Shown here in pieces: positions 6,687-57,366 of a stretch of DNA of 64,000 nt (position 1 is its first letter; every line of letters starts with the position of its first letter). The notes beneath the pieces are model-generated. The model was not told the DNA's origin and ran no database searches. It was given only the letters and a program-made list of their open reading frames with translations. The position numbers and the translations under genes were made by a program. This DNA is from Escherichia coli (lineage in GTDB: Bacteria; Pseudomonadota; Gammaproteobacteria; Enterobacterales; Enterobacteriaceae), in NCBI RefSeq assembly GCF_024298765.1, contig NZ_CP101211.1; one strand, given 5' to 3'.

Positions 6687-6754
6687 CGCTTAAAAATAAT
6701 AAAAGCAGACTTGACCTGATAGTTTGGCTGTGAGCAATTATGTGCTTAGTGCAT

Positions 6755-6825
6755 CTAACTTTGTTTTAGGGCGACTGCCCTGCTGCGTAACATCGTTGCT
6801 GCTCCATAACATCAAACATCGACCC
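6755..6825 (-). other. attI1 recombination site of a class 1 integron, apparently with no cassette
   Basis: 5'-conserved segment ...GTCGCCCTAAAACAAAGTTAGAT followed on the cassette strand by what I recall as the start of the qacE cassette, cut by IS26 at 6686; boundaries approximate. Confidence 0.6.
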
Positions 6826-19962: not shown

Positions 19963-19967
19963 CCTGG

Positions 19968-20040
19968 GTTAACTTTGTTTTAGGGCGACTGCCCTGCTGC
20001 GTAACATCGTTGCTGCTCCATAACATCAAACATCGACCCA
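19968..20040 (-). other. attI1 (second copy) with the GTTAACC cassette junction
   Basis: Same 5'-conserved segment as 6755-6825 but joined to the dfrA cassette. Confidence 0.6.
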
Positions 20041-20553: not shown

Positions 20554-21373
20554 GGCACTGTTGCAAAGTTAGCGATGAGGCAGCCTTTTGTCTTATTCAA
20601 AGGCCTTACATTTCAAAAACTCTGCTTACCAGGCGCATTTCGCCCAGGGGATCACCATAATAAAATGCTGAGGCCTGGCCTTTGCGTAGTGCACGCATCA
20701 CCTCAATACCTTTGATGGTGGCGTAAGCCGTCTTCATGGATTTAAATCCCAGCGTGGCGCCGATTATCCGTTTCAGTTTGCCATGATCGCATTCAATCAC
20801 GTTGTTCCGGTACTTAATCTGTCGGTGTTCAACGTCAGACGGGCACCGGCCTTCGCGTTTGAGCAGAGCAAGCGCGCGACCATAGGCGGGCGCTTTATCC
20901 GTGTTGATGAATCGCGGGATCTGCCACTTCTTCACGTTGTTGAGGATTTTACCCAGAAACCGGTATGCAGCTTTGCTGTTACGACGGGAGGAGAGATAAA
21001 AATCGACAGTGCGGCCCCGGCTGTCGACGGCCCGGTACAGATACGCCCAGCGGCCATTGACCTTCACGTAGGTTTCATCCATGTGCCACGGGCAAAGATC
21101 GGAAGGGTTACGCCAGTACCAGCGCAGCCGTTTTTCCATTTCAGGCGCATAACGCTGAACCCAGCGGTAAATCGTGGAGTGATCGACATTCACTCCGCGT
21201 TCAGCCAGCATCTCCTGCAGCTCACGGTAACTGATGCCGTATTTGCAGTACCAGCGTACGGCCCACAGAATGATGTCACGCTGAAAATGCCGGCCTTTGA
21301 ATGGGTTCATGTGCAGCTCCATCAGCAAAAGGGGATGATAAGTTTATCACCACCGACTATTTGCAACAGTGCC
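20554..21373 (-). mobile_element. IS26 (820 bp, complete); right edge of the resistance region
   Basis: 14-bp terminal repeats at both ends. Confidence 0.95.
20606..21328 (-). CDS. tnpA: IS26 transposase
   Basis: Identical translation to the other IS26 tnpA copies. Confidence 0.95.
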
Positions 21374-27262: not shown

Positions 27263-27275
27263 AAAAGTTACTTTT
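27263..27275. repeat. 13-bp palindrome AAAAGTTACTTTT (backbone motif copy)
   Basis: Exact copy; overlaps the DsbC-like stop codon, 14 bp before the next gene start. Confidence 0.8.
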
Positions 27276-34892: not shown

Positions 34893-36308
34893 TCAGTTAC
34901 GTGTGCCACGAATACTTTCAGTGAAAGCCTTCCGTTGCAGGCGACGGTTATCCCAGGTTGAAATGACGTCCGAGCTGGTACCGACCTGGCTGTGCGATAG
35001 CTCATAGGCGGCTTTAACCTGTTTTGAGAGATTGTCTGTTAATCGGTTGAGATCATCCCTTTTACCCGACAGCGACTCACTCGGTATGCTCATGGTTGAA
35101 ATTTTGGCCTCAACCTGGCGCAACATGTTGATTACGAGGCTCGTCGCAGCAATAGTGCTTATGTCCTGAATGTATGCGTACCCTTCCGGTGCTTCGAATG
35201 TTTGCAAAGAGTCGATAATGGTCGGGATGCCGATATAGGAGATAATGCGTAATTCATCATCTGAAACACGAACGTCGTTGATGATTTTTTTCTGTACGTT
35301 TAAAAGAAGATCAGAAATGGTATCCTTCAATCCCTTAAAACCACCGTCATTAACTTCTGACATGACAAGGCACTGAGCCTTTCGTGGGGATGATGGATCT
35401 GGTGCCGGAGAACACTTGAGCATTTTAATTGATCCGCCAGCTGGTGGCCCCATGATGTAATCCGTGACAGTCATGGTAGACGGGCGGACTTCCATTCCCG
35501 CTTTTTCGCCTTTGCTATCCCAGTTGATAATGACAGTACCCACGAGAGACATAAGTTGTTCTGCCAATTTATAACCGGATAACTCCGTTACCCCTCCGAT
35601 GTTCATTGTTCCCTTATCAATATCCATGAACGACATATAGAAGAGGTTACCACTGAATTTTTCAGCGAACTCTTCGGGATCCTTTGCTTTAACCTGAGAA
35701 GTGACAGCTTCAGGTGACTTTGTCATCGATGAGCCAAAATCAGGAATGAGACCATTAATCGATCCCAGAATTGAGGCTGGTCCAGAGCTAACTGAGTTAG
35801 CGAACTGGCTTGGCGTACCCACGTTTTCAGAAAGGAAAGAGTAAGTTGCATTGCATGAATCTTTCGCAAATTTATTTAGCGCTTGCAGTTTGTTTTGGAT
35901 GTCATTAATCGTTGCAGCACAGTCAGCACAAATAGCTGAAACAGCAACGTTAAAAGCATAGATAGCCGCACCCTGGGCAATACCACGGGCCACCTGCACA
36001 AGCTGGTCCCCGTTGATCATGCTGAAGGACCCAAGAAAAACGTCAATACCATTACAACCGACAGAAGCTTTTGGAAACGACATGGAAACAAGGTTGGTAT
36101 TAACGTTTGTTGTTCGGTAAGACATTGACCCGCCAACTATGCCTGTACGGGTTGCTGTGGAAAAGGTGGCCGGGCTGGTAGACGTCATCATGCCATTGAA
36201 AATGTTACGCATTGCGTTGTCTGCATTTGCAGTCGGGGCTAAAATTGCAGCACAAACAGAAAGAGACAAAAGTAACTTTTTGAAGTTGAAAACGGCATTA
36301 CTGCGCAT
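34893..36308 (-). CDS. trhH: F/H-type pilus assembly protein TraH/TrhH
   Basis: Signal peptide MRSNAVFNFKKLLLSLSVCAAILAPTANA (start taken at the Met at 36308); about 470 aa. Confidence 0.65.
   Translation of the reverse strand: MRSNAVFNFKKLLLSLSVCAAILAPTANADNAMRNIFNGMMTSTSPATFSTATRTGIVGGSMSYRTTNVNTNLVSMSFPKASVGCNGIDVFLGSFSMINGDQLVQVARGIAQGAAIYAFNVAVSAICADCAATINDIQNKLQALNKFAKDSCNATYSFLSENVGTPSQFANSVSSGPASILGSINGLIPDFGSSMTKSPEAVTSQVKAKDPEEFAEKFSGNLFYMSFMDIDKGTMNIGGVTELSGYKLAEQLMSLVGTVIINWDSKGEKAGMEVRPSTMTVTDYIMGPPAGGSIKMLKCSPAPDPSSPRKAQCLVMSEVNDGGFKGLKDTISDLLLNVQKKIINDVRVSDDELRIISYIGIPTIIDSLQTFEAPEGYAYIQDISTIAATSLVINMLRQVEAKISTMSIPSESLSGKRDDLNRLTDNLSKQVKAAYELSHSQVGTSSDVISTWDNRRLQRKAFTESIRGTRN
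36270..36282. repeat. Backbone palindrome copy AAAAGTAACTTTT, inside the trhH 5' coding region
   Basis: Exact copy encoding FNFKKL of the signal peptide. Confidence 0.75.
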
Positions 36309-37937: not shown

Positions 37938-38450
37938 TTAATCTAATTCTTCTTGAGAATACCTCTCTATGGCTGAAGCAGTTGAAGATAATCTGCAACG
38001 TGGACAATAAGCATCATTTGTCACTGGCACAATGTATGGGCGTTTACATTTTTCGCAGGCACCTAGTTCTTCAATTTCTTTCATAGAAGTAAGGATTTCT
38101 ATTATTTTATTAACTTCCGGTGCGCATACAAAGTATCCCAGATTATGAAGGACACTCATTATTCGGTTGAAGTCAATTTGCCGAAAACTCGCTTCCGGAT
38201 TTATTGGATCAAAACCAAAATAGTTAACTGCGACATCAATAACAGCAGAAAAAGCTCGGCGGTTATCTGTGCGTTTGCTCCAGCCCCGGATACCTTTTTT
38301 GAGTTTTGTTTTTGCACCAGGCTCAAAATCGATATTTTCAGCAACATGATTACCGTACAAAATTCGTATTGTATTTTTATTTGCCCCAAGCGACATAGTC
38401 CTTGCTGCTCGCAATAGAGCATTAGCTTTTGTTTGATCGACCTTTGCCAT
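37938..38450 (-). CDS. FlhC-like regulator with a C-terminal C-x2-C-x15-C-x2-C zinc ribbon
   Basis: CEKCKRPYIVPVTNDAYCPRC has the Cys spacing of FlhC-family activators. Confidence 0.5.
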   Translation of the reverse strand: MAKVDQTKANALLRAARTMSLGANKNTIRILYGNHVAENIDFEPGAKTKLKKGIRGWSKRTDNRRAFSAVIDVAVNYFGFDPINPEASFRQIDFNRIMSVLHNLGYFVCAPEVNKIIEILTSMKEIEELGACEKCKRPYIVPVTNDAYCPRCRLSSTASAIERYSQEELD

Positions 38451-38451
38451 A

Positions 38452-39252
38452 TTAATAATCCTTTAACATAACTTTATTTGTTAAAGTGTTGAACACATCC
38501 TGACGGTGACTGGTGAACATAGTGTCATAACGTAATAGTTCCATCAAATCATCACTAACTTTTCCTAACCGGATGTCAGCAGACAATTCATAAGCCCAGG
38601 CAAAAACTTTCGTTTTAAGTGAAACACTCTCTTCAATATGCCCTTGTGAGAAAGCAATTGTACGTGGGAAAAGAACGACATCGTTAATTGTTTTTAACGA
38701 TGAATAACCAATGTCTTTAATAGCATCAGCTGTAGTTGGTTTTAAACCAAAGAAAACACTTACAAACTCTGGTGCGAGCATTGAGATAAAGAACACCTGC
38801 ATAAAGTAGTCATTCTGTATATCAACACATTTAGAACGCAACTCATGAATCTTCTTGGGATTATAGATATCCACTGTACCATTCAGAAAAGTCACTTTTT
38901 CACCGGCATCGTAAATACCATAGTCAATATCATTTGTATCATATTCACGAATTACATTGGAATCACCGTCCAAGACCGCAGAAAAAAACCTCTCCCATGT
39001 AATTTCCTTTCCGAGTGTACGCGGAACCAAAAAACTACCTGGACGTGTTTCCACTTCAAAAGCTAAATCAGCGGCTGTACTAAATCCTTTCCCAAATAGG
39101 CGACGCTGGAGAAGAGGAGTCCCAGTTTGATATGCAGAAGATCCATGCACAGGCAATAACATTAAAAATGCACGGTAACTACGAATAAGCGAAATCTCAG
39201 TGCGGAAAAGTTTACCGAGTAAGCTACGAGTTAAATTATCAGATTCTGACAT
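38452..39252 (-). CDS. Hypothetical protein co-transcribed with the FlhC-like gene
   Basis: 266-aa ORF ending 1 bp before the FlhC-like start. Confidence 0.45.
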   Translation of the reverse strand: MSESDNLTRSLLGKLFRTEISLIRSYRAFLMLLPVHGSSAYQTGTPLLQRRLFGKGFSTAADLAFEVETRPGSFLVPRTLGKEITWERFFSAVLDGDSNVIREYDTNDIDYGIYDAGEKVTFLNGTVDIYNPKKIHELRSKCVDIQNDYFMQVFFISMLAPEFVSVFFGLKPTTADAIKDIGYSSLKTINDVVLFPRTIAFSQGHIEESVSLKTKVFAWAYELSADIRLGKVSDDLMELLRYDTMFTSHRQDVFNTLTNKVMLKDY

Positions 39253-39329
39253 GTGCTGATTGTCCTTGCGCCATTACAATTGTTCAAATCTTCAACATGG
39301 ATTTTTTGTTAGGTGTTCGGTAGGGTGAA

Positions 39330-39342
39330 AAGTAACTTTTAG
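39330..39342. repeat. Backbone palindrome copy AAAAGTAACTTTT
   Basis: Exact copy about 80 bp upstream of the 266-aa gene start. Confidence 0.8.
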
Positions 39343-39349
39343 TATTTTC

Positions 39350-39372
39350 TTAAGGCTTGAATAAGCCTTAAA
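39350..39372 (+). repeat. Inverted repeat TTAAGGCTT-gaata-AGCCTTAA
   Basis: Perfect 9-bp arms, 8 bp downstream of a 13-bp palindrome copy. Confidence 0.5.
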
Positions 39373-39578
39373 TCTATCCCTTCAACCACACCGCTTACTT
39401 GTAACACTTTTTAACCAAACTGACCAGAATTTTATCAAAATTTCTTCGCATGCTAACGAAATGTGAAGCGATTAAAAAAAAACCTAAATCCAGCCCCTCC
39501 CAACGTTGGATTAGAATAACGACGTCTTTCACTGACCGTCATAAACTGACATTTTTACTTTTCATCAACCTCATGCTT

Positions 39579-39744
39579 ACATAGGATCACTAAACAAAGA
39601 AAAGTGACCCTATGAATACCTCACATAGGGTCACTTATGTTTGAAAAGTGACCCTATGTAATGTCGTCATAGGGTCACTTTTTATAAAAGTGTCACTATG
39701 GACAAAGTTCCATAGGGTCATTTTTTTTGGAAAAGTGGCACTAG
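39579..39744 (+). repeat. Array of about 8 copies of CATAGGGTCACT / AGTGACCCTATG in inverted pairs (candidate oriT or operator)
   Basis: Pairs at 39603-39635 and 39647-39679 (9-bp spacers), degenerate pair at 39689-39722, extra half-sites at 39579-39590 and about 39733-39744. Confidence 0.7.
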
Positions 39745-39813
39745 ATATATGTATAACTTTAATAGAGCAATGCACATTATCAAAAGCAATAATCCACAAT
39801 GGTCATTCCCTCA

Positions 39814-39825
39814 AAAGTAACTTTA
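39814..39825. repeat. Backbone palindrome copy (12 of 13)
   Basis: AAAAGTAACTTT about 190 bp upstream of the relaxase operon. Confidence 0.7.
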
Positions 39826-40010
39826 GAGGGTAGCGATGGAAGTGAGGCTAAACTCGCTGTTACTGTTTCTGAAGGCCCCTCCCGAATGGGGGAAACAGCG
39901 AGTGCATTACATCTGTTCAATTCCCTCATCAAAGAGCATTCAAAAATCTTCTGTTCGTGAAAAAAAACGGAAATTTCCTCCGGTATAGTAATTTCACATC
40001 AGGAGGCGTC

Positions 40011-40496: not shown

Positions 40497-41230
40497 CCGA
40501 CGCAATTATCACGGACAATGAGCGTATTAACATTGAACCAAAAGATGTAATGGTAAAAGGTTCAAATAAAAAGCAAGGCGTAAACGCTCAAACTTCTACT
40601 CAACGTAGACCAGAGCACCAGGGTATGGCCAAAGTTATTATTAACCCCGGCACCCCAGATTTTAACCGGTTTTTAACTGCCAGAAATGGAGCAGTCATCA
40701 GAGGTTTTGATGATGTGAGTATCGCTATTTCCTCTCTCTTTAAAACGGTTGATGCAGTTAAACATCCTGACCTTGTTCAGGCTATTCAGGATTGGTTCAA
40801 CGAGCTGCATGAAGAAAACAATAAGATGAAAGAAAATCTTGTTGCTTATATTAAGTCAATTGAGTTCGACAAGAATGACTCATTCATGTCATCAACTCAG
40901 TTTGTACCTTTCAGTTTTGAACCAGTACAACTCAACTTCAATAACCACAACACCATGAGGTTTTACAAGTACATCTTCGAGATGAACCAGCTCATGAACA
41001 CAATGTATGAGTACAACTCATTGGGTTTACTGGCTGTAAGCGACTATCCGGTTATGTCTCACAACATTATAAAGAGTATTAATTTATATGTTGAGAATGT
41101 GAAAAAGACTCTGAATGTTTCTCGCCGTAAGGATGGGCCATACAGTCCAGCAGAGTTCATCACCAAAGTAATGCAATATAAAAGTGTGCAGGCATACATT
41201 GCAGCCGAACTGTCAGGCAAACGTCGATAA
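40493..41230 (+). CDS. Hypothetical protein (possible relaxosome component)
   Basis: 245-aa ORF translationally coupled to neighbours. Confidence 0.45.
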   Translation: MTDAIITDNERINIEPKDVMVKGSNKKQGVNAQTSTQRRPEHQGMAKVIINPGTPDFNRFLTARNGAVIRGFDDVSIAISSLFKTVDAVKHPDLVQAIQDWFNELHEENNKMKENLVAYIKSIEFDKNDSFMSSTQFVPFSFEPVQLNFNNHNTMRFYKYIFEMNQLMNTMYEYNSLGLLAVSDYPVMSHNIIKSINLYVENVKKTLNVSRRKDGPYSPAEFITKVMQYKSVQAYIAAELSGKRR

Positions 41231-41233
41231 GGT

Positions 41234-44200
41234 ATGATGATGAATTTCAGGGCGCTGTATTTATGTATTAAACGGATTTTGGGGATATTCTCATCTCAGG
41301 AGAATGATGCAACCTCTGTAATGATTGAGGATATATCAAGCCTCTCTCCTTTTGCGCAGATTCTAGGAGATCAGAAGTACACTGTTCCTGATCATCCAAA
41401 TCCAGAAGTCCTGAAATTCATCGAGTATCCAACTCGTCCGACGGGCATACAGACATTTAATGAACAGTCAATCCTGTCTCTGTATCGGGAAAAGCTGCAC
41501 TCAATTTCAATGATGTTAGCTATCAGCGATAGCGACATCAGGGACGATGCATATACATTTACTAATTTAGTATTAAAGCCCTTGGTTGAATATGTTCGCT
41601 GGATACATCTTTTGCCAGCTTCCGAAAATCATCATCATAATGGTATTGGTGGGTTACTTTCTCACAGCCTGGAAGTGGCCATACTCTCTTTAAAAAATGC
41701 GCATCACTCAGAACTGAGACCAATCGGATATCAAGATGAAGAAGTAGTCCGTAGAAAAGTATATCTCTATGCTGCGTTTATCTGTGGTTTAGTCCATGAT
41801 GCCGGAAAGGTTTACGATCTCGATATTGTAAGCCTGAATTTAGCTAGTCCGATCATTTGGACGCCAAGCTCACAAAGTCTTCTTGACTGGGCACGTGAAA
41901 ATGACGTGGTTGAATACGAAATCCACTGGCGAAAGCGTATTCATAATCAACATAATATCTGGTCCAGCGTTTTCCTTGAGCGAATCCTAAACCCGGTATG
42001 TCTTGCATTTTTGGATCGGGTAAATAAAGAACGTGTTTATTCAAAAATGATCACCGCCCTAAACGTTTATACTGATGGGAATGACTTTTTGTCTAAATGC
42101 GTGAGGACCGCTGATTTCTATTCTACTGGTACAGACCTTAATGTTTTACGTGACCCTATCATGGGTCTGCGTTCTAATGATGCAGCAGCAAGGGCCATTA
42201 GTACCATCAAGCACAACTTTACCAGTATCAATATCAACAATTACAATGCTAAGCCTATGCACATCATTATCGTAAATGGTGAGGTATACCTTAACGAGAA
42301 CGCATTCCTTGATTTTGTTCTCAATGATTTCGAATTACATAAATATAACTTCCCTCAGGGAGAGGCTGGTAAGATGGTATTGGTAGAATCCCTAGTTCAA
42401 CGTGGTTACGTCGAGCCCTATGATGATGAGCGTGTCGTTCACTACTTCATTCCGGGTATCTATTCGGAAAACGAAATATCAAACATCTTTAGAAATGGGA
42501 TAGGGAAACTAGAATTCTATAACCTTCTTAAGCTAAGGTGGATTGGTTTAATCTTTGATTCCTATAAAATCCCTGACTCAGTGCCGGGTCTTTTTAGCGT
42601 TAATGCCAATAAAGACTTTATTTACATTGACGAGCAAAAAACAGTTACTGAATACAGAAGACCAGTGCCCGGTCGGGACGCTATAACTAAAATTACTGAT
42701 ACTGTTGAGACGGCTGTTCTTAAGGTTAATGATTTAGGCCGCTCCACTGCCTCTATTGATGTTGATATACATTCTAAGAAAAATGAAGGCTCATCCGACG
42801 ATTTTGAGAAGAAAGCCGAAAGTGATAATGAAATTGATAATGACACGCAGATAGTTAAATCTGAGGGTGAGGAAGCAGCTGATCCTGTCATTCCTGATAT
42901 AGAAGAAAGTGAAGATGAATCGGCAAAGGACACGGAATCCCATGTCCTGGTCAACCAACTTCATGAACTCCTTTTAAGCGCTCCACTTTCCAATGACTAT
43001 ATAGTGTGTGTAGATGCTGTCCCCTACCTCAACATAGATGCCACTATGGCATTGCTGCCGGGATTAGATGAAAAAGCATTTAGTGAAGAGCCCTATTTCC
43101 AACTGACATTCAGAGAAGGCTCTCTCGATGGAATGTGGATAGTAAGGGACATTGACGATCTGCGTTTAGTCCAGCTCGGCGATAACTGCGCCGGGTTCCA
43201 GCTCACCTATCATGAGCCAAGAAGGCCAACAACTTTAAAGTCACTTTTCAATACTTCTATGTATCAGGCATTAGTGATTAATGATGAGTCTTCTGTTGAA
43301 AACTCTGCCCCACGTCCAAAGCAAACGCTTGAGCTGCCTCCCCCACGTGTAAATGCAGTCGAAGAACATTCTGGCGACGTGGAATATCATGGAACCGATA
43401 GTGCATCCGCGACTGGTCCGCTGAAAACTGAGGCTGTGGAATATGAACATTATCAACATCTTTTTGAGGAAGAAGATGAAGAGCATGAGATCATTGATTA
43501 TACCGATTTCACACAGCTTAGTGTTTCTCGGCCAGAAGTCGGTAGTTGTGCAACAAGCTCTTCGGTCCATAATGAAAAGCTTCTCCCCGAGCCGTCAGAA
43601 TTACCAGAACTTAACCGAGAACAGAACGCTGATCCCCAGGGTACGATTGAACGCTCTATGGATGTTTCTGTAGGACAAGAAAACTCAGAACCAGATACTG
43701 AGGGTAACTGCCCACCACCAGCTGAAGTTGTGTATTCCCAGACCGAAGCAGCCGCAACCAGTGTGATGGCAAGTGAAGAGCCCGCCTTACCTCCTGTACT
43801 TGAAGAATCAAATGGAGAGCATGCGCCCACAGACGCTAAGGGGCATCATCTTTCGCCAGCACTGGCCAGACTGTTCGCCCCAACAGCACCGGTAGAAAAA
43901 CAAAATCCCAAGCGCAACCGGAATAAATCATCGGACAAAGCAGAAGTACAAAAACCAGCATCACCTGTTTCTGGTCACAATCTGAACAGTAAAGTCTTTG
44001 CAACTACTGAATCAGACCAAAATGGTGAATTCTCGCTTATAAGCGAAGGTGACGTTACAGAGCTTGAATTTGTAGAAATTGCGTCAGTACTGCATCAAAT
44101 TCTGTCCAAAATGGAGGTGGCGTTTAAAAGAAAGCGCAAAAACAGATTTATGGTAAGTACTCCTAATACTCTCTATCTGACCCAATCTTGCGTGGAAAAA

Positions 44201-44386: not shown

Positions 44387-46470
44387 TGTCAGATTCGAAG
44401 AGGACTAACCTCCATGCACAAGAGAATTTTTATCGGCCTATTCTTGAGTATCGTAGTGCCTCAATACTTTTGATTTGTTCGGTTTCTATGCTTTATATGG
44501 GACTTTCTTCAGACGGACTGGACATCGCCCCAATAGTTCTGTTCACCTCAATATTGCTTTTTTTGCTGTGCCTTTATCGTTGCAAAACAGCAGCGCCATT
44601 CTTGATGGCTCATTGGCGTGTATTCAAGCGACATTTCATGTTCGTTAGTCTTGATTCACTGCGTGTAATTAACAAAAGTAACTTTTTCTCCAATGAGCGA
44701 AAGTATCGTCAACTGGTTCAGGATTATCAAAATAAAAATAAGGATATACCCGAGCGAAAGTCCTATTTTTGTGATGGGTTTGAGTGGGGCCCGGAACATG
44801 CGGATCGGGCATATCAAATAGCTAACCTCTCCAGTGATAAACGTGAGATCGAGTTGCCATTCGTCTTCAACCCAATTAAGAGACATTTTGACGCAATGGC
44901 TCGTAAGATGGGCGGCAGCAATGCAATTTTTGCTGTGGAACGTAGGGAACCCATATTTGTAACTGAAGACAATTGGTTTGGTCATACTCTGATAACCGGA
45001 AACGTGGGTACCGGGAAAACGGTGCTACAGCGTTTACTAAGCATTAGCATGCTTCATCTTGGTCATGTTGTTGTTGTCATAGATCCAAAGAACGATGCAG
45101 AGTGGCGAGAATCTCTAATGGAAGAGGCTAAGACCCTCGGTCTTCCTTTCTATAAATTTCATCCTGGCCAGCCAGCATCTTCGGTCTGTATTGATGTCTG
45201 CAACACCTATACTAATGTTTCTGACCTAACATCTCGTCTTTTGAGCTTGGTGACAGTTCCCGGTGAGGTTAACCCATTCGTTCAGTATGCCAAAGCTCTC
45301 GTTTCCAATGTGATTTCCGGGCTTTCTTACATAGAGAAAAAGCCTTCTATTTATCTGATTCACAAGAACATGAAAAGCCACATGTCTATTGTGAATCTTA
45401 CAGTCAAGGTAATGGAGTCATGTTACGCGAGATATTATGGTTACGATGTCTGGACCGAAAAAGTTAAGTACGTCGCTAACGAAACCTTGCCGGTACGTTT
45501 CAAGCGTCTCGCTGAATGGTTTACGGCTCATTTCATGAATTACGAGGGGTCCGAACAAATAGACTGGTTAGATACTGTTTCCCAGCTTATTGATTACTCA
45601 ATGTCCGACCCAGAGCATATGGCTAAAATGACCGCAGGTATTATGCCTGTTTTCGATATGCTCATTGAAAAACCTTTAAATGAGCTTTTATCTCCTAACC
45701 CGAACTCAGTATCATCAAGAGAAATTGTAACAAGCGAAGGGATGTTCAGCACTGGCGGGGTGCTATACATTTCGCTTGATGGCCTTTCAAACCCCGATAC
45801 AGCAGCTGCTATTTCTCAATTAATAATGTCAGATCTGACCTCCTGTGCCGGTAGTCGCTACAACGCTCAGGATGGTGATATGTCAGCTAATTCCAGGATA
45901 AGTATTTTTGTTGATGAGGCACACTCAGCCATTAACAACCCTATGATTAACCTTCTGGCGCAGGGTCGTGCAGCGAAAATTGCACTGTTTATTTGCACCC
46001 AAACCATCTCCGACTTTATTGCTGCGGCAAGTGTTGAAACTGCCAATCGAATTACGGGGCTCTGCAACAATTATATAAGCTTGCGAGTCAACGATACTCC
46101 TACTCAGACGCTTGTTGTAGAGAACTTTGGTAAGAGTGCGATAAGCACAAATATGGTCACTTATACGACCGGTTCAGAAACATCTTTGCCGCATAATAAC
46201 TTCTCAGGTTCAATCTCAGAAAGAAAGCAGACAACTTTAGAAGAGAGTATTCCAAAGGATCTCTTGGGTCAGGTCCCTATGTTTCACATAGTTGCCAGGC
46301 TTCAAGATGGCAGGAAGGTTGTAGGCCAAATCCCTATTGCTGTTGCTGAGAAACAAATGAAGCCAAACACAACTCTGTCGGAAATGCTTTTCAAGAAGGC
46401 CGGAAAAGTTACTTTGCGTCAAAATCTCGATATCAAAAATCTTAATAAATTTCTAAGGAAGTTGCATTGA
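44386..46470 (+). CDS. traG: Type IV coupling protein (TraG of H-type plasmids; TraD/VirD4 family)
   Basis: N-terminal transmembrane helices and Walker A GNVGTGKT; 694 aa. Confidence 0.75.
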   Translation: MSDSKRTNLHAQENFYRPILEYRSASILLICSVSMLYMGLSSDGLDIAPIVLFTSILLFLLCLYRCKTAAPFLMAHWRVFKRHFMFVSLDSLRVINKSNFFSNERKYRQLVQDYQNKNKDIPERKSYFCDGFEWGPEHADRAYQIANLSSDKREIELPFVFNPIKRHFDAMARKMGGSNAIFAVERREPIFVTEDNWFGHTLITGNVGTGKTVLQRLLSISMLHLGHVVVVIDPKNDAEWRESLMEEAKTLGLPFYKFHPGQPASSVCIDVCNTYTNVSDLTSRLLSLVTVPGEVNPFVQYAKALVSNVISGLSYIEKKPSIYLIHKNMKSHMSIVNLTVKVMESCYARYYGYDVWTEKVKYVANETLPVRFKRLAEWFTAHFMNYEGSEQIDWLDTVSQLIDYSMSDPEHMAKMTAGIMPVFDMLIEKPLNELLSPNPNSVSSREIVTSEGMFSTGGVLYISLDGLSNPDTAAAISQLIMSDLTSCAGSRYNAQDGDMSANSRISIFVDEAHSAINNPMINLLAQGRAAKIALFICTQTISDFIAAASVETANRITGLCNNYISLRVNDTPTQTLVVENFGKSAISTNMVTYTTGSETSLPHNNFSGSISERKQTTLEESIPKDLLGQVPMFHIVARLQDGRKVVGQIPIAVAEKQMKPNTTLSEMLFKKAGKVTLRQNLDIKNLNKFLRKLH
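44675..44687. repeat. Backbone palindrome copy AAAAGTAACTTTT, inside the coupling-protein gene
   Basis: Exact copy in coding sequence. Confidence 0.75.
46405..46416. repeat. Backbone palindrome copy (12 of 13)
   Basis: AAAAGTTACTTT about 50 bp before the next gene start. Confidence 0.7.
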
Positions 46471-50439: not shown

Positions 50440-50802
50440 TCAGGGGTTTAACGCCGGAATATTTTGCCAGGCCTCCTGCAAGGTCTGCAAGACTTCTACA
50501 AGTGATAGTGACGGCCACAGGACTGTTTCCGTCATTATCACTCCAGGTGGCTCGCACTCTACTGGTACCAGAATTAAAACAACACGAGTTCCTTTTACCT
50601 GGTAGGCAAGGTTTACTGCCGGTTGGCGGTAGGAGGCCAGTACACCCTCACCATATTGAGCAGGGTTACTTGCCCAGTTCCGCACCATTGCATACACCTG
50701 AGGCATATACCGACTATCCAGATCCCCTTTGGGCCGTCTGAACGGCACGATTTCTTCTGAGCGGTAGGTGGTCGTTGTTGTATTGGTTGTCATCTTTGTC
50801 AC
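50440..50802 (-). CDS. Hypothetical protein
   Basis: 120-aa ORF with a GGGGAGG ribosome-binding site. Confidence 0.4.
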   Translation of the reverse strand: MTKMTTNTTTTTYRSEEIVPFRRPKGDLDSRYMPQVYAMVRNWASNPAQYGEGVLASYRQPAVNLAYQVKGTRVVLILVPVECEPPGVIMTETVLWPSLSLVEVLQTLQEAWQNIPALNP

Positions 50803-50858: not shown

Positions 50859-51143
50859 TTATTTAAGCTGGTCATCGTCTCTGGCCAGCATAGCCCAACC
50901 ATTCGACTGGTTTTCGCGGGAGTAAGGATTCATTTCAAAATAACTATCTACCGCGTCGCTGTCCGCAACAGAACTGTTGTTAGCTCTCTTTGAACCCTGA
51001 ACCACTACAGCATCAACCTCTGCGGCTTTCCCGTTGCGCTGTACCAGGATTTTAACCGTCTTGGGCTTACGTCTTGCGAGCAGTTTGTTGGCGATAAAAA
51101 GCACAACAATCCAGGCCAAAAGCACGTATAAAAATTTATTCAT
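50859..51143 (-). CDS. Small membrane protein
   Basis: N-terminal transmembrane helix; AAGGAGGG ribosome-binding site. Confidence 0.5.
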   Translation of the reverse strand: MNKFLYVLLAWIVVLFIANKLLARRKPKTVKILVQRNGKAAEVDAVVVQGSKRANNSSVADSDAVDSYFEMNPYSRENQSNGWAMLARDDDQLK

Positions 51144-51305: not shown

Positions 51306-51318
51306 GAAAGTTACTTTT
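51306..51318. repeat. Backbone palindrome copy (12 of 13)
   Basis: GAAAGTTACTTTT upstream of the 94-aa membrane protein gene. Confidence 0.7.
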
Positions 51319-51499: not shown

Positions 51500-51802
51500 T
51501 CAGTCACCACCACCACCTCCTCCTCCTCCTCCTCCACCGCCACCATCACAACCACCAGCTATGCTATTTTCACCATTACAATCACCTCCGAGGGGGTTCA
51601 AATGGCTGCTCCCCTGTAGATGGTGTCCTTGCCAGATCGAACCCGAACCAGCGCCTCCTGAGCGTCTTTGCTTGCCCTGAGGCAATTGTGCAGGCTCACC
51701 AGCACCGGCGGTCCCAAAAATGTCCCGGGCAATTTTATAAAGAAGGTAAAAAGGTACGCCCAGCATCATAAAAAAGATTACTGAAAATATTACACGTTCC
51801 AT
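51500..51802 (-). CDS. Small membrane-anchored protein with a Gly-rich C-terminal tail
   Basis: AGGAG ribosome-binding site 7 nt before the ATG; N-terminal transmembrane helix; the tail is encoded by the CCN repeat. Confidence 0.45.
   Translation of the reverse strand: MERVIFSVIFFMMLGVPFYLLYKIARDIFGTAGAGEPAQLPQGKQRRSGGAGSGSIWQGHHLQGSSHLNPLGGDCNGENSIAGGCDGGGGGGGGGGGGGD
51507..51545 (+). repeat. Trinucleotide (CCN)13 simple sequence repeat
   Basis: caccaccaccacctcctcctcctcctcctccaccgccacc. Confidence 0.8.
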
Positions 51803-52234: not shown

Positions 52235-52603
52235 TTACCCTTCAAATCCAAAGACGAAACGGACGCTGCCGTTCTCCACGTGGAGACGCTTTACTTCTTC
52301 GACAAATTCCTGGATCACCTCTCCGGCGTTATCGGGTGGTATGGCTGACAAAATTTCTTCCGAAGTCAGCCATGAGTATGAATGTTCACCGAATAAATCA
52401 TCATCTTCGGACGGTATATCATCAGGTAATCCGCGTAATGCGTGGATAAAAACTGCTGATGTGCTCGCCCTTTCACGATCTACATCAAATCCGAGCCAGG
52501 CAAAGTGGAGATATGATCGGTCCCCTTTATAATTGCTTGATAAATTAATCCATTTACCAGGCTTTTCTTCCCTTTGAAATCGCCAGCAGATATCAACGCC
52601 CAT
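52235..52603 (-). CDS. Hypothetical protein
   Basis: 122 aa; last gene of a seven-gene minus-strand cluster. Confidence 0.4.
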   Translation of the reverse strand: MGVDICWRFQREEKPGKWINLSSNYKGDRSYLHFAWLGFDVDRERASTSAVFIHALRGLPDDIPSEDDDLFGEHSYSWLTSEEILSAIPPDNAGEVIQEFVEEVKRLHVENGSVRFVFGFEG

Positions 52604-52767
52604 TAAGAAACTCCATTACTATCGTTCGTATGAGATAACTATCATTTCAGAATACTATGACTTCTTCCCGTATAGAACTAATCGCTCACGCCAACTGGGC
52701 GAAGCCAACCGGTTCCGCCACTTCGCTCATTGGTTTTTAGGCGTAAGCACTGAAGCCAGTCTCCATG

Positions 52768-53310
52768 CTAACTGGCGAGCCTGCGAAAGTCAGACTCGTT
52801 GTTATAAAGCGGCATATCGTAAGCGGTGTCTGAAATGAACATGCGGATCTGCTCAAGCGTCATGCCACAATGAAAACGGTTTACGCTCACATTGGCCCGG
52901 GGGAAGTCAGCACAAAACGCATTCAAAACATTTTCATGGACAATGCCAATGTTGATCAACGCAGCTGGCCCGTTGTCACGGAAGGATACGACACGGAATC
53001 CCCCATACCAGCCTGAATGGGAGAAAAATGAAAATGCGCCGGATGCCAGACCATTAGACAGGTCATAGCGCAATTTCCCGCACAGAGACTGGCTGTCTTT
53101 GCTGTACACGCGATTAATGAAAATACCGGGACCAACTTCTACCGGCTGCTTGTTGCTTGCTAAACACGGAAAGCCCACCAGCGAAACCTCCCTTTCTCCT
53201 GACCAGTTTACCTGATACCCGGCAGTGAGAAAGTCCGTCAGTTCTACGCCAGAAAGAGCATTAATGGCCGCGATATCGGTAGTCAAAATATTTACGTTTT
53301 TCATATTCAT
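52768..53310 (-). CDS. Hypothetical protein
   Basis: 180 aa. Confidence 0.4.
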   Translation of the reverse strand: MNMKNVNILTTDIAAINALSGVELTDFLTAGYQVNWSGEREVSLVGFPCLASNKQPVEVGPGIFINRVYSKDSQSLCGKLRYDLSNGLASGAFSFFSHSGWYGGFRVVSFRDNGPAALINIGIVHENVLNAFCADFPRANVSVNRFHCGMTLEQIRMFISDTAYDMPLYNNESDFRRLAS

Positions 53311-53371
53311 CTCATCTTTATTCTAAAGTGCGTTTTTTGTCTATCAGCCCGAGGATTGAAAATTTGAATAT

Positions 53372-53809
53372 TTAATGTGACAGATAAATACCTGTCACTT
53401 TTTCAAAAACAGCCTGTAATTGAATATCGAGAGAGTTCATTTTAAAATCCACCAGCTCAGCTTTATTATCGCAAACCAAATAAAAATAGGAGTCAAATGC
53501 GTCTGTATCTTCATCTTTAAAAATACGGAAGGAATTAATTTTATCATGCCCTTCAAATTCGGCATGAATACCATAGCGAACCGAGCCGTCATCGAACTGA
53601 ACAACCCGTCGTACAGAATTAATCCGGACGTACTGTTTTAAGGCCCTCGCGAAATCGGCATTTAACGCCAACGCTCGTAAGATTGAATCAGCGGTTTCAT
53701 TCTGCTTTTTACGATCGTATTCAAATATCCCACAGCCGGTGTTACGAAAGACCGGCTGAAGAGCATTAACCAGGTTGAAGGAATCCACGTTTCTGTCGTT
53801 TCTGTACAT
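53372..53809 (-). CDS. Hypothetical protein
   Basis: 145 aa. Confidence 0.4.
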   Translation of the reverse strand: MYRNDRNVDSFNLVNALQPVFRNTGCGIFEYDRKKQNETADSILRALALNADFARALKQYVRINSVRRVVQFDDGSVRYGIHAEFEGHDKINSFRIFKDEDTDAFDSYFYLVCDNKAELVDFKMNSLDIQLQAVFEKVTGIYLSH

Positions 53810-53853
53810 GAGATATCTCCTGCCCCTCCGCTATACGAAGGGGCTTGATAGGG

Positions 53854-54150
53854 TTACTGCCAGGCTGCGATCACTTCTTCGCACTGGAAATGAGATAAGC
53901 ACTGCTGGAGTAGAAGAGCCAGCACCGCTGTGTTAGGGACGCGATTGTTACACCACGCGTTGAAAAGCAGCTGCCATGGACCGGCATAATACCCGGCCAG
54001 TTTCTTTTTTTGTTTAGCTGTACGGCAGCGGGAAATGGCCTGCTGATAAAGGCTTTCATTCTCATCACCAGCCCGTTTTTGCAGAGTGCGATAAATATAC
54101 GAATAAAGACTGTCAGAACAGTTTGAAGCGTACGCCAGTTGTTTTTTCAT
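53854..54150 (-). CDS. Hypothetical protein
   Basis: 98 aa. Confidence 0.4.
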   Translation of the reverse strand: MKKQLAYASNCSDSLYSYIYRTLQKRAGDENESLYQQAISRCRTAKQKKKLAGYYAGPWQLLFNAWCNNRVPNTAVLALLLQQCLSHFQCEEVIAAWQ

Positions 54151-54270
54151 AATACCTCCTGTTTAGAAGTATTATATGTAAACAGCCTCAGCGGCTAATA
54201 ACCCGTAGCAATATAATTTGCATTTTTTCTATTTCTGAAGACGCTTTTTAAATTAATATTTACTGAGTTA

Positions 54271-54549
54271 TCACAACTTATTATTCTTCCCGTCTGCTGT
54301 TTTATTAATCCCCCAGTTAGTAATCACGCCAAGTCGGCGCAATTTTTCACGTTGTTCATAAATAAAAAAATCGCCAAGGCAGTCTTTTAAAACTTCACTA
54401 TCCTGATATTTTATTTTTTGAAGCATCCTCGCAACTATGGCGCGTTTCAGGAATATGGCTGCATCAGACTCAAGCATTTGTGAGGACTGTCTGACGGTCT
54501 CCTGCATGTCGACGATACTGCTGAGCTTTCGTCTGACCACGCTTAGCAT
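54271..54549 (-). CDS. Hypothetical protein
   Basis: 92 aa. Confidence 0.4.
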   Translation of the reverse strand: MLSVVRRKLSSIVDMQETVRQSSQMLESDAAIFLKRAIVARMLQKIKYQDSEVLKDCLGDFFIYEQREKLRRLGVITNWGINKTADGKNNKL

Positions 54550-54733
54550 AGTGTCCGGGAACCGCTTAGCGGCTGAATGTAACCCGCAACAACGTTACGC
54601 ATTGTTTTACTCACTGCAATTTTCCATTTAAGTCTGTTTGTTCCACCAGCTGCTAACATCAGCGTTATTCATCCTGAGGTTTCGCCCGCGATTGACAGAT
54701 CAGAGGCAGCATGGATGAAATTGCCAGAGTAGA

Positions 54734-55015
54734 TCACTGCATACGCGAATAGTGGTTTGTATTCAGTTCTGCGTTTGCCTGCTTTTCCAGTGCTGTCATA
54801 ACCCGGCGGAGCATCGCCAGAGCCTGAACAGGCGAGCTCCCAAACTGCACTTTCACTTCAGCCGTATCATGATCCTGAATCAGGTCGAGTATATTCACTT
54901 CGATCCCTGCCCCGTTTTCATCTTTTGCCGTGCACTGAATACTTACCCGGGTCACCGAATCCGTCAGGACTGGCAGTGGGTTAGTTTTGTCTACGTTGAT
55001 AACAGCCTTCTTCAT
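54734..55015 (-). CDS. Hypothetical protein
   Basis: 93 aa. Confidence 0.4.
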   Translation of the reverse strand: MKKAVINVDKTNPLPVLTDSVTRVSIQCTAKDENGAGIEVNILDLIQDHDTAEVKVQFGSSPVQALAMLRRVMTALEKQANAELNTNHYSRMQ

Positions 55016-55080
55016 TGCCCTGTTTCCCCTTGTCCTGAAAAAGTTACCGACCCGTCCGGATGGAGGGGTCGGTCAGAAAA

Positions 55081-56265
55081 TCATGACTGTCCCTTGTTCA
55101 TCTTATCAGCATGCTTACGCAGGTACTCTTTCAGGTCAGCATGAGCGTTGATGATATCGTTCATTTCATCATTGGTCAGAACAAGCGTGTAAGTATCAGT
55201 ACTGACAGATTCACCTTCTTTAAGCTTGGCTTCTTCAGCAATACGTTCAAAAATCGGGATCGCGGTGTCTGCAATGACGGTCACAGTCTTTTTGTTCAGA
55301 ACGCTGGACATGGAAGGTGCTTTACCTGCCGGGTTCTGTTTAGGAGCGCTGTCCTTTGGAGCTGGAGCCGGTTCCTGTACCGGTGGCGTATCCAGCGTCT
55401 CCGTATTGCTTTCATCGTTCAGTTGATCCGGTACCGGGGTGTTATCGGTAGTATCATCTGCCGGTTGCTCAGCACCGATGTTTTCCGGAGTCTGCGGATC
55501 TGCCATGCGCTCTTCTACCTTGGCAGCTTTGACGAATTTCAGCGTGTTTTTCGTCGCCTTGCCATAGATGGAGATCGCTTTGTTGATGTTATCTACCGCA
55601 TCCTCACCGCTGTACATATACTCGTCCAGTGCAACGTACATGCTCACCTGATCGCTCACAAGCATGGTCTGTAGTTCAGAAGGCAGGTCCAGTACGCGAA
55701 CCATCTGGCGAAGATGCTGCTCTGATTTACCACGTTTTTTTGCCAGTTCCGCAAAGGTCTTAGGCTCTTCTTTATCTTCAACCAGACGCTTAATTGAAAG
55801 CGCTTCAGCTACGACAGACAGCGCCAGGTTGGAGTTGCCGGTCAGGGTGAAGAGTTCTGCTTTTGAAGCGCTACCGCGAAACTCTTCGCAGCGAATACGA
55901 GTAATGCGTTCACGCCCTTCTGCTTCCAGCTGGCGGTTTGCAATAGCGATGGAACGGATACGGCAAGCCCCCTGACGCAGTACAGGTACGCCATTAACCA
56001 TCTGAACAACGATAGGCGTCACGCTGAACGGGTCTTCCATGTAGGCATCGGCCAGGCTGTTCAGGTGTTCCACAACGTGAGGCATTGAATAGTAGAGCTC
56101 GCCCATACCGGCCGTGCGGGTGTTAAAGCCTTCCTGCTCTACAACAACCGAAGGGTCAATGATAAGGCCGTTGCCTTTACGGGCACCGTTACCAGTGCGT
56201 TCCAGGTAACCACGAAGGCTGATTTCGTTGCTGTTGTTTTTTACTTCAGTTTCGATTGCGGACAT
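55081..56265 (-). CDS. ParB-like nuclease-domain protein with an acidic, Pro-rich linker
   Basis: N-terminal region ...FNTR...IVVQMVNGVPVLRQGACRIRSIAIA resembles the ParB/Srx fold (GxRR-type motif); 394 aa. Confidence 0.5.
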   Translation of the reverse strand: MSAIETEVKNNSNEISLRGYLERTGNGARKGNGLIIDPSVVVEQEGFNTRTAGMGELYYSMPHVVEHLNSLADAYMEDPFSVTPIVVQMVNGVPVLRQGACRIRSIAIANRQLEAEGRERITRIRCEEFRGSASKAELFTLTGNSNLALSVVAEALSIKRLVEDKEEPKTFAELAKKRGKSEQHLRQMVRVLDLPSELQTMLVSDQVSMYVALDEYMYSGEDAVDNINKAISIYGKATKNTLKFVKAAKVEERMADPQTPENIGAEQPADDTTDNTPVPDQLNDESNTETLDTPPVQEPAPAPKDSAPKQNPAGKAPSMSSVLNKKTVTVIADTAIPIFERIAEEAKLKEGESVSTDTYTLVLTNDEMNDIINAHADLKEYLRKHADKMNKGQS

Positions 56266-56356
56266 TTTTGTTCTCTTTTTTGGTTGGTTGTTTAACTGCG
56301 CTACAACACAACAATACCAGGTTCGACATTTTTCCTAATAGGTTGCGGAGAAGAAA

Positions 56357-56369
56357 AAGTAACTTTTTT
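56357..56369. repeat. Backbone palindrome copy AAAAGTAACTTTT
   Basis: Exact copy about 90 bp upstream of the ParB-like gene. Confidence 0.8.
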
Positions 56370-56480
56370 TAAAAATTTTCCTGAGGCAATACTACTCGAT
56401 CCGTCCGTTTTAAATCTTCACAACAGTGGGCCGTTTTTACGTTTAAGCAAAATAACTGGTTCAGAAGGTGACTCAGAGAG

Positions 56481-56493
56481 AAAAGTTACTTTT
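56481..56493. repeat. Backbone palindrome copy AAAAGTTACTTTT
   Basis: Exact copy about 215 bp upstream of the ParB-like gene. Confidence 0.8.
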
Positions 56494-56680
56494 CCGGTTG
56501 TCTGGGCCAGTGATGGGAGAGTGGCAGGACAGGAATGGCTAAACCGGTGCGGGTCTCTTGTAAGTCGCAGGGGATTCAGGAGATATAGAGGTAAACTGGT
56601 ACGTTCAGTTTTTGGATTGAGCCGGGCTTTTGGCCCGGGCTTAAGGAAGCAGAAATTTGAACGAACTGGCAGGTAATGCT

Positions 56681-56857
56681 TTATGCCGCCGACAGCTGGC
56701 CGTCAGTGCTTTGCTGTTCTGGTTTGACAGTTGGGGGATAACCGGCAGTTAGCCGCTGGCATTCCGCATCACAGAAAGCCCTGAGGTTGCTGAAGACGGA
56801 CTCCATGAAATCAGCATGAGCATACGAGTCTACAGGACGTGTCTTGTTATCTTTCAT
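56681..56857 (-). CDS. Small hypothetical protein (58 aa)
   Basis: GAGGAG ribosome-binding site 6 nt before the ATG at 56857. Confidence 0.3.
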   Translation of the reverse strand: MKDNKTRPVDSYAHADFMESVFSNLRAFCDAECQRLTAGYPPTVKPEQQSTDGQLSAA

Positions 56858-57366
56858 CTTGTTCTCCTCAATCATTATTAAAACCAGCGGATTTAGTTTC
56901 TGGCGCTCCATCTGCTGACCGGCTTTCCCAGAGAGCAGCGATGTGTCGGGTTCTTTTTCTCATTTTATCGTTTTCATCGGGCCCATCCGGGCGTATAAGA
57001 GACCGATTTGGCATGTTTAGGAAACGTACTGGCGTAATTAAAAGCTGAGGTTGGATTTGGAATAAAAGGATGCTTTTCCCGTTTGTCGGGTCTTTCGCCA
57101 CCGCTGCACGATGATTCTGTCAGGCATTCTGCGCCCTCCCAGGCTGCACATCTGGAAACAAGCGTTGGGATGTTCCCTTCCCCTGCTCACCGTAGAAAGA
57201 TCGGCAAGTCCCGACGGTCGTTCCGTACGAGCCGGGTCCAAATAATGAATAAATAAAACGCCGCTTCAATTGTATTGACAATAGAAGTCAGGAGGATCAT
57301 AGTGTCATTCATGGTGCGGCTTTCGCACCACCGCCCCGGCGGTACCGGGCAGAACTGGAGTACCTC

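Follow-up and report, generated by a model that had tools for sequence, protein, structure and literature searches.

KorB, of the incompatibility group P-1 (IncP-1) plasmids RK2/RP4, is a global repressor of the ParB-CTPase (CTP, cytidine triphosphate) family (PMC11790492). HerB of plasmid F is a 652-amino-acid (aa) protein with domains D3 (residues 238-417) and D4 (418-652) forming a V-shaped dimer core. It contacts host chromosomal DNA at no consensus motif, is not enriched on F and has zygotic induction (PMC13370423, a 2026 preprint), while BisD of the integrative and conjugative element (ICE) ICEclc is described as a ParB-like CTP-clamp regulator that acts on transfer-related genes from specific sites (PMC12409273). 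Regulation of IncHI plasmids, which spread colistin (mcr-1), carbapenem and typhoid multidrug resistance, has so far been known only via H-NS/Hha and TrhR/TrhY-HtdA. Here we analyzed a 64,000-nucleotide stretch of the Escherichia coli contig NZ_CP101211.1 (the whole of which we call the window), in which a minus-strand gene for a 394-aa ParB/KorB-like protein (55081-56265) heads a run of small genes, and found that a 13-bp palindrome in the upstream spacer of this lead gene is a conserved plasmid-wide and family-wide element of IncH backbones, present in about 50 copies. The window is conjugative-plasmid backbone of the IncHI2 (R478-like) type, the segment being 95-100% identical to about 990 plasmid records of 210-300 kb from Escherichia, Salmonella, Enterobacter and Klebsiella, with the matching records typed as IncHI2A, MOBH and MPF_F.

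An earlier note on this DNA, made from the sequence alone, had placed two palindromes in the promoter region of the lead gene, and both indeed lie in the 415-bp spacer 5' of it (56266-56680), which carries two exact copies of AAAAGTWACTTTT. The proximal copy (AAAAGTAACTTTT on the plus strand, 56355-56367) is centered about 95 bp 5' of the ATG and the distal copy (AAAAGTTACTTTT, 56481-56493) lies about 220 bp 5' of it. AAAAGTAACTTTT and AAAAGTTACTTTT are one 13-bp near-palindrome on opposite strands, differing only at the center base, and we write the site as the odd palindrome AAAAGT-N-ACTTTT (also AAAAGTNACTTTT). Aligning the otherwise diverged upstream regions of five lineages left the proximal site as the sole invariant block, with its equivalent found 90-110 bp 5' of the ATG in IncHI2, IncHI1, Klebsiella IncHI1B-like, Raoultella and Yersinia plasmids, and the distal site has a one-mismatch IncHI1 counterpart at the equivalent position (locus L008, 5776). 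Counting sites with at most one mismatch within about 900 bp 5' of each ortholog, we found 2 in IncHI2 (the window; protein identity 100%), 2 in IncHI1 (65%), 6 in the Klebsiella IncHI1B-like plasmid (35%), 6 in the Raoultella plasmid (36%), and 1 exact site plus 1 further core match in the Yersinia plasmid (44%).

Beyond the lead gene, the palindrome recurs far above chance. The window holds 6 exact copies (0.00 expected from 100 shuffles) and, allowing up to two mismatches, 15 copies (1.9 expected), all of which fall within 24.8-56.5 kb. Complete plasmids gave 23 exact and 23 one-mismatch sites in pSTM6-275 (IncHI2, 276 kb) and 26 exact and 24 one-mismatch sites in R27 (IncHI1, 180 kb), where base composition predicts 0.28 copies of the 11-bp core and 46 are present. 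Nearly all sites of pSTM6-275 are in the backbone, and its 81-153 kb accessory region, with resistance and metal islands, has no exact copy. Sites also favor promoter-proximal DNA, such that 23 of the 50 R27 sites are intergenic compared to 20% of the DNA (p = 4e-5), mostly 50-300 bp 5' of a start codon; the intergenic sites lie 5' of trhA (the Tra2 operon), htdT, trhR, mobI, Ig-like protein genes, the lead gene and one of its paralogs. Between lineages, 17 of 20 alignable IncHI2 sites are retained with at most one mismatch at the exact orthologous R27 position although their flanks are only 66-81% identical, and we found no conservation in the flanks beyond the 13 bp. Chance retention at 72% identity is estimated at about 2 of 20, and the palindrome is therefore under purifying selection. 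The literature searched, which did not extend to the older R27 and R478 genome papers, has no mention of this palindrome in a plasmid context and no description of this gene or of the role of its protein.

Several of the sites in the window lie at transfer genes. An exact copy lies 76 bp 5' of trhR at one edge of the origin of transfer (oriT) region (39328-39340) and is conserved in R27 (108820, 81 bp 5' of trhR), and a one-mismatch copy in the oriT region about 198 bp 5' of mobI (39813-39825) has an exact R27 counterpart 192 bp 5' of mobI. Another exact copy, about 288 bp into the coupling-protein gene (traD/traG; 44674-44686), is kept exactly at the orthologous R27 position with flanks 71% identical. 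Further exact copies occur at the start of trhH (36268-36280; conserved in R27 at 111898) and in a short gap between two minus-strand backbone genes (27263-27275), the latter with a one-mismatch R27 ortholog (IncHI2 179647). In the Klebsiella plasmid pNDM-TJ03 (IncHI1B/IncFIB), five copies are packed into about 330 bp of the 1.27-kb spacer 5' of trhA (L026, 1209-1552), with 12 copies at up to two mismatches in 9 kb overall. R27 also carries three tandem variants, AAAAGGCACTTTT, at 38881, 38924 and 38967 (L019), exactly 43 bp apart and iteron-like in look, inside a 'hypothetical' ORF (open reading frame) between trhA and a RepB-family initiator gene.

The reading of the lead gene as ParB-like is supported, with profile, Pfam, PDB-profile and fold matches all to the ParB family. 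Residues 24-255 match phrog_1033, a ParB-like partition protein (expectation value, E, 1.6e-21), residues 149-209 match the Pfam helix-turn-helix (HTH) family HTH_ParB, the protein also matches the HTH of Caulobacter ParB, and a profile built from 42 family members and searched against the PDB retrieved ParB (4UMK, 2.6e-14), Noc and KorB (1e-4). The AlphaFold2 (AF2) model (mean predicted local distance difference test score, pLDDT, 80, with residues 13-255 confident) comprises a ParB N-terminal domain and HTH at about 13-255, a disordered acidic and proline-rich linker at 262-316, and a helical C-terminal domain at 319-393. A Foldseek search of this model against the PDB placed the KorB-KorA-DNA complex 8QA9 at the top (E 3e-8; template modeling score 0.64-0.67 on the target), with Noc and ParB close behind and with KorB, Noc and ParB chains all at probability 1.0. 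The lead protein is predicted, then, to have the full ParB/KorB/Noc-type architecture, and the ParB N-terminal domain followed by an HTH DNA-binding domain that defines the ParB-CTPase superfamily is present. Two motifs, F47-N48-x-R50 and G99-x-C101-R102-x-R104, are invariant or nearly so in the family, in alignment with the box II motif GERRxRA. The family is small, with 254 cluster representatives out of 1.84 billion at E < 1e-3, a handful of them full-length.

Two family assignments were considered and set aside. A canonical ParABS locus was rejected given that there is no adjacent parA, the neighbors being small ORFs that leave the lead protein an orphan, and given that the plasmid has Par1 parAB and Par2 parMR elsewhere. 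Membership in the HerB/YfjB family, which we judged by the presence of four domains (D1-D4) at no less than 80% coverage each (PMC13370423), was rejected as well, since the 394-aa lead protein has only the linker and a 75-residue helical domain after its DNA-binding domain and neither D3 nor D4.

To place the locus in an expression context, we used published R27 microarrays (supplementary table of PMC7366339) and mapped ORFs by position (hok = R0101, ParB-like gene = R0104, NERD gene = R0115). The lead-gene ortholog R0104 was measured at 2196 and 2155 units at 25 and 37 °C, respectively, and at 5624 in the htdA mutant at 25 °C, whereas R0105-R0112 were low or not expressed in steady-state R27 cells: R0105 (ortholog of the 93-aa protein) stood at 207 and 295 at 25 and 37 °C and rose 6.5-fold to 1338 in the htdA mutant, R0110 (ortholog of the 180-aa protein) stood at 160 and 283 and rose 6.5-fold to 1033, and the intervening ORFs R0106-R0109 were not expressed in either wild type or htdA mutant (PMC7366339). 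Because R0104 is high while the genes behind it are about 10-fold lower or silent, and go up when transfer is derepressed, the lead gene, a strongly and constitutively expressed backbone gene, fits better as a standing regulator followed by repressed cargo than as part of one uniformly expressed operon. The operon proposed in the earlier note is borne out in the shared orientation of its genes, whereas a single, uniformly expressed operon is unsupported by the R27 arrays.

The earlier note missed that the palindromes make up a conserved operator set across the plasmid, which makes a KorB-type regulator the more likely reading of the ParB-like protein. We propose, with confidence just short of even, that the lead protein is a KorB-like, autoregulated global regulator that binds the 13-bp operator, and that the small genes are its variable, mostly silent cargo. 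Under this proposal a dimer of the lead protein, formed through its C-terminal domain, would recognize AAAAGT-N-ACTTTT, binding at its own promoter would give negative autoregulation, and binding elsewhere would join the genes for transfer, establishment and maintenance in a single circuit across the plasmid, as KorB does on RK2. Likely targets would be its own gene, the trhA operon, trhR, mobI/oriT, Ig-like surface-protein genes and the conserved intragenic positions, and, should the protein slide as a CTP clamp, it may load at the intragenic sites. In established cells the small genes would be low or silent, and they would come on where repression is absent, as in a naive new host or a derepressed donor. 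Somewhat more tentatively, we suggest that IncH plasmids run on an undescribed KorB-like network, separate from the TrhR/TrhY-HtdA and H-NS/Hha circuits; an equally tentative extension has this network spanning IncHI1, IncHI2, IncHI1B-like plasmids and their relatives, possibly with CTP-dependent sliding-clamp loading at the roughly 50 sites, those conserved within coding sequences among them.

The spacer itself offers a candidate arrangement for such autoregulation. Reading the sequence by eye, we noted on the minus strand a putative promoter (56304-56340) with an extended -10 (TGgTATTGT, 56319-56311) and a weak -35 (about 56339-56334), of which CCTGGTATTGTTGT is common to IncHI2 and IncHI1, and which would, at low confidence, place the center of the proximal palindrome near -57; a consensus promoter scan gave no clear promoter call in the upstream spacer, the putative promoter included. 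Farther upstream, a GC-rich hairpin (CCGGGC-N5-GCCCGG, 56617-56642) sits inside a 13-bp tandem duplication just 3' of an ORF of 58-76 aa (56681-56911) that is not conserved in IncHI1; neither strand has a T-run there, which rules out a canonical terminator.

That the lead protein, rather than another, binds the palindrome is an inference, as is the direction of regulation. Two other candidates were weakened by the distribution of sites: Par1 ParB, as there are no sites near parAB in pSTM6-275 or R27, and TrhR/TrhY-HtdA, as the F-operon promoter (R27 110223-110833), the one most dependent on HtdA/TrhRY, lacks a site despite 27-fold derepression in the htdA mutant while the HtdA-independent R operon has its site 5' of trhR (with promoters F, H, AC and Z taken as TrhRY/HtdA-dependent). 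TrhR and TrhY, the described transfer activators, gave no Pfam or NCBIfam match and have no recognizable DNA-binding domain. In favor of the lead protein, every lineage preserves S/T-x-x-H-(L/V)-R-x-x-x-(R/K) in its recognition helix, as an invariant target would predict. Several findings nevertheless count against it. In place of box III (ENxQRE) the protein has (T)GN..L, which lacks the Glu and Arg, and box II retains only the G and two of three Arg; CTP-clamp behavior is therefore uncertain, with CTP binding possible and hydrolysis doubtful as judged from these motifs. For the last 75 residues the model predicts two long helices (pLDDT 60-80) rather than the SH3-like fold of KorB, and neither a KorA-like partner nor an adjacent KorA-like gene was identified. 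Because every lineage has the same site, protein and site show no co-variation, dense clustering of the site is not unique to the lead gene in view of the trhA spacer of pNDM-TJ03, and distant family members (L018, L023, L025, L027-L029) have no enriched palindromes nearby. One lone 13-bp odd palindrome, CAAACAnTGTTTG, found about 140 bp 5' of a distant 387-aa member in a divergent spacer (L028, about 1939-1951), is not significant.

The same question of binder gives rise to a rather unlikely alternative, in which the palindrome is the operator of some other IncH factor (the paralog R0042, another backbone regulator or a different protein) with the ParB-like gene as one of its many targets, and, at the same modest probability, the lead protein would act elsewhere; it might, like HerB/YfjB of F, sit on the host chromosome and reprogram the transcription of the host. 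Every IncH plasmid examined has a further pair of orphan ParB-like paralogs, which share 32% and 26% identity with the lead protein and are located on the minus strand of pSTM6-275 at 269897-271060 (L007, 19897-21060) and 274270-275325 (L007, 24270-25325) and in R27 at 45191-46348 and 40890-41966, and these too speak against the lead protein as the binder. Paralog 2 (R27 R0042, a 'partition protein') is highly expressed in a conjugation-linked manner, occurs in the same plasmid groups as the lead protein, leaving no phyletic split between the two, and has a conserved one-mismatch site 79-118 bp upstream in three lineages (AAAAGGTACTTTT, or AAAAGTACCTTTT on the other strand, at 79-96 bp in IncHI2 and IncHI1; AAAAGTAACTTTC at 118 bp in an IncHI1B-type plasmid). 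The presence of sites at many promoters, clustered 5' of trhA, agrees with this alternative as well, and HerB offers a precedent, being a ParB-like protein from conjugative plasmids whose chromosomal binding involves no parS-like motif (PMC13370423). However, the recognition helix of paralog 2 is not kept between lineages (TTISS versus MAVRQ) while the site is, and the places where sites occur do not fit the TrhR/TrhY-HtdA regulon; as for a HerB-like role, the lead protein is far shorter and lacks D3/D4, F-like plasmids are not prominent among its tblastn matches, and R0104 is constitutive where HerB is zygotically induced. Less probable again, and in our view improbable, is that the lead protein and dispersed parS-like sites form an accessory segregation or compaction system that bridges or condenses DNA or feeds the Par1 ParA. 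ParB family membership, the many dispersed and partly intragenic sites, the large size of these plasmids (180-300 kb) and a conserved N-terminal S-L-R motif, reminiscent of ParA-contacting peptides, would suit such a system. Yet no ParA is adjacent, partition in IncH plasmids is already served by two systems (Par1 ParAB and Par2 ParMR), and sites favor promoter-proximal positions over one centromere. A weak further point against it is that the IncHI2 'hypothetical protein' region B1 (about 56 kb), in which we assume the locus to be included, lost abundance in an evolution experiment (PMC9599605).

Turning to the genes behind the lead gene, all seven co-oriented ORFs of the earlier note are present on the minus strand (52235-56265), with gaps from the ParB-like gene onward of 65, 184, 120, 44, 61 and 164 bp and a recognizable Shine-Dalgarno (SD) sequence at six of the seven. 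These encode, in order, a 93-aa protein (54734-55015; 58% identical to the IncHI1 ortholog directly 3' of its ParB-like gene), a 92-aa ORF (54271-54549), a basic 98-aa protein with a strong SD (53854-54150; 72% identical to an IncHI1 region annotated there as two fragments), a 145-aa protein with a strong SD (53372-53809; 53% identical to its IncHI1 ortholog, with a 29% identical homolog on a Yersinia plasmid about 8 kb 3' of the ParB-like gene), a 178-180-aa protein (the 180-aa protein; 52768-53310; 61% IncHI1 ortholog, with homologs in IncHI1 and IncHI2 only), and an acidic 122-aa protein (52235-52603; isoelectric point (pI) 4.6, net charge -11, SD present) that is IncHI2-specific at its position, where IncHI1 has a DUF905 gene. 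The 92-aa ORF is doubtful as a gene because it lacks an SD, has three caller starts (68, 78 and 92 aa) and has no homolog outside IncHI2. A consensus scan found no terminator between the cluster genes. The co-oriented block does not end at 52235, however, as the minus-strand run spans 50.4-56.9 kb and includes three further genes before the convergent relaxase operon: a 100-aa gene with an N-terminal hydrophobic segment and a Gly run (51500-51802), a 94-aa gene with an N-terminal hydrophobic segment (50859-51143) and a gene of 117-120 aa (50440-50802), the latter two with IncHI1 orthologs. The 356-bp gap 5' of the 94-aa gene carries a one-mismatch palindrome, GAAAGTTACTTTT (51306-51318). The Gly run corresponds to a (CCN)n tract (51500-51545) that encodes 13 glycines at the C-terminus of the 100-aa protein and reads poly-proline on the opposite strand.

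Searches of the six small proteins and the upstream ORF against NCBIfam, PHROGs, PADLOC and Pfam returned nothing but weak PHROG matches of the 122-aa protein to families of unknown function (E 3e-5), in agreement with the earlier note, which had recognized no family among the small proteins. A PDB sequence search of the 145- and 180-aa proteins found no match, and an AF2 model of the 180-aa protein from an 11-sequence, two-clade alignment was unusable (pLDDT 37). Gene order is shared with IncHI1 for the 93-, 98-, 145- and 180-aa proteins, whose orthologs there are 53-72% identical. The 92- and 122-aa ORFs occur in IncHI2 only, and in Klebsiella, Raoultella and Yersinia plasmids the conserved ParB-like gene is followed by other small genes, so that what fills the downstream slot varies with the lineage. 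In the Klebsiella and Raoultella IncH-like arrays (L009, 12154-13224; L010, 10291-12740), a Cas6/CasE-like gene followed by one for a helicase C-terminal-domain protein lies a few kb 3' of the ParB-like ortholog and co-oriented with it, with no cas operon in the stretch fetched. The gene for a 318-aa relative of the lead protein lies in a co-oriented array (L017, 6555-14281) with genes for an AcrVA2-like protein (a faint Pfam match), an Mrr_N-N6/N4 methyltransferase and PsiA, a neighborhood of the classic establishment type.

The cluster adjoins the transfer region Tra1. On its far side, trhY and trhR (37938-39252, minus) are followed by the oriT region (about 39253-40010) and then, on the plus strand to 50153, by mobI, an ORF, the MobH relaxase, the coupling protein, traJ, a DUF4400 gene, an S49 peptidase and the NERD gene with which the three additional minus-strand genes end convergently. 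TrhY (37938-38450, minus) ends in a CEKC...CPRC four-cysteine, zinc-ribbon-like motif. Looking wider, the uniformly oriented array includes hok, orphan DNA methyltransferase, HNH and RelE/ParE genes. A resistance island without palindrome sites makes up the left third of the window and bears integron signatures and IS26-like ORFs: Rfam matches across the whole window were limited to AAC_AAD_leader/attI, signatures of class 1 integrons (6731-6805 and 19947-20019, minus), and five 240-aa ORFs resemble IS26 (1464-2186, 5919-6641, 7622-8344, 17536-18258 and 20606-21328). An identical ParB-like gene and neighborhood also occur on the chromosome-sized records CP015574.1 (4.94 Mb) and CP173056.1 (5.06 Mb), and 33 index blocks have contigs of more than 1 Mb, which suggests chromosomally integrated IncHI2 plasmids.

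This layout bears on the view of the earlier note that the block belongs to a plasmid leading region and is a reservoir of anti-defense functions, which we consider unlikely. Taken as an alternative, it holds that the locus is a leading-region-type island whose small proteins are anti-restriction, anti-SOS or other anti-defense and establishment factors made early in transconjugants. The leading region is the side of oriT away from the relaxase (Samuel et al. 2024, PMC11541004), and oriT lies directly beside mobI in R27, SXT and IncA/C (PMC10838148; PMC5587640), whereas the cluster stands 12-16 kb from oriT on the relaxase side, behind the mobI-relaxase-coupling protein operon, and so is not leading by that rule. 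The reachable literature gave no statement on the transfer polarity of the IncH/MOBH oriT. The genes point toward oriT, as would be expected if the plus strand were transferred relaxase operon first; should the strand leave mobI first, the block would enter after about 10 kb with its genes templated by the transferred strand, as leading genes are, such that this point cuts both ways. Also in keeping with an establishment island are the long uniform array with its hok, methyltransferase, HNH and RelE/ParE genes, the lineage-variable small-gene set that resembles an accretion hotspot, the distant homolog found between a methyltransferase and PsiA and near the faintly matching AcrVA2-like protein, the strong acidity of the 122-aa protein, and the silence of the small genes in established R27 cells with derepression in the htdA mutant. 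Against this, the cluster has no ssb, psiB or ardA and no match to a known anti-defense family, no small protein has structural support (from the PDB search of the 145- and 180-aa proteins or the AF2 model of the latter), and the upstream spacers show no Frpo-like single-strand fold, their single-stranded DNA folding scores (z = -1.8, -1.2 and -1.0) being no better than shuffles. The lead gene, for its part, is constitutively high, with equal levels at 25 and 37 °C, which sets it apart from HerB of F with its zygotic induction. The anti-defense reservoir is unsupported, and an establishment role of the small genes is possible but unsupported.

Were the KorB-like proposal true, IncH plasmids would possess a second, plasmid-wide control layer built from an operator in about 50 copies and a candidate ParB/KorB-type binder, and one network would coordinate the transfer operons, the oriT region, Ig-like surface proteins and silent establishment genes. 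It would extend to another large plasmid family the theme, seen in KorB, BisD and HerB, of ParB family members as transcription regulators, and the genes under control of the sites would be sensible candidates for establishment and anti-defense functions.

Compared to known systems, ParB-parS and Noc with its binding site (NBS) are closest by profile (4UMK, 7NFU, 6SDK), sharing a box II aligned with GERRxRA and a palindromic site that the HTH would recognize, but the IncH site is 13 bp rather than 16 bp, unrelated in sequence, backbone-wide and promoter-enriched, and the IncH protein has neither a ParA partner nor the catalytic Glu of box III. The lead protein resembles HerB as an orphan ParB-like protein on a conjugative plasmid, built from an N-terminal domain of the CTP-binding type plus an HTH; its gene, too, lies among genes of the establishment type, and its proposed role is again in transcription regulation rather than partition. 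It differs in lacking D3/D4, in being accompanied by a sharp plasmid-borne palindrome, and in the constitutive expression of its R27 ortholog. BisD is likewise a ParB-like regulator on a conjugative element that acts on transfer-related genes from specific sites, though it is described as a CTP clamp that activates transfer-competence genes on an ICE (PMC12409273).

KorB itself differs from the lead protein in several respects. By sequence, the lead protein is nearer chromosomal ParB/Noc (E 2.6e-14) than KorB (1e-4), no ParA (IncC) lies next to it and neither a KorA nor a TrbA partner was identified, its C-terminal domain is predicted helical where that of KorB is SH3-like, its box III is degenerate, and IncH plasmids carry about four times more sites per plasmid. 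The likeness lies in a plasmid-encoded ParB family protein of similar length (about 358 aa for KorB, 394 aa here) composed of an N-terminal domain, an HTH, a flexible linker and a C-terminal domain, for which 8QA9 is the best Foldseek match, and in the form of the operator: the KorB operator on RK2 is the 13-bp TTTAGCSGCTAAA, an odd palindrome with an AGY-N-RCT core, and the candidate IncH operator is an odd 13-bp palindrome with the same AGY-N-RCT core. As with KorB, this candidate operator is present in multiple copies at transfer and maintenance promoters, at the gene for its own putative binder, and at promoter-distal and intragenic positions.

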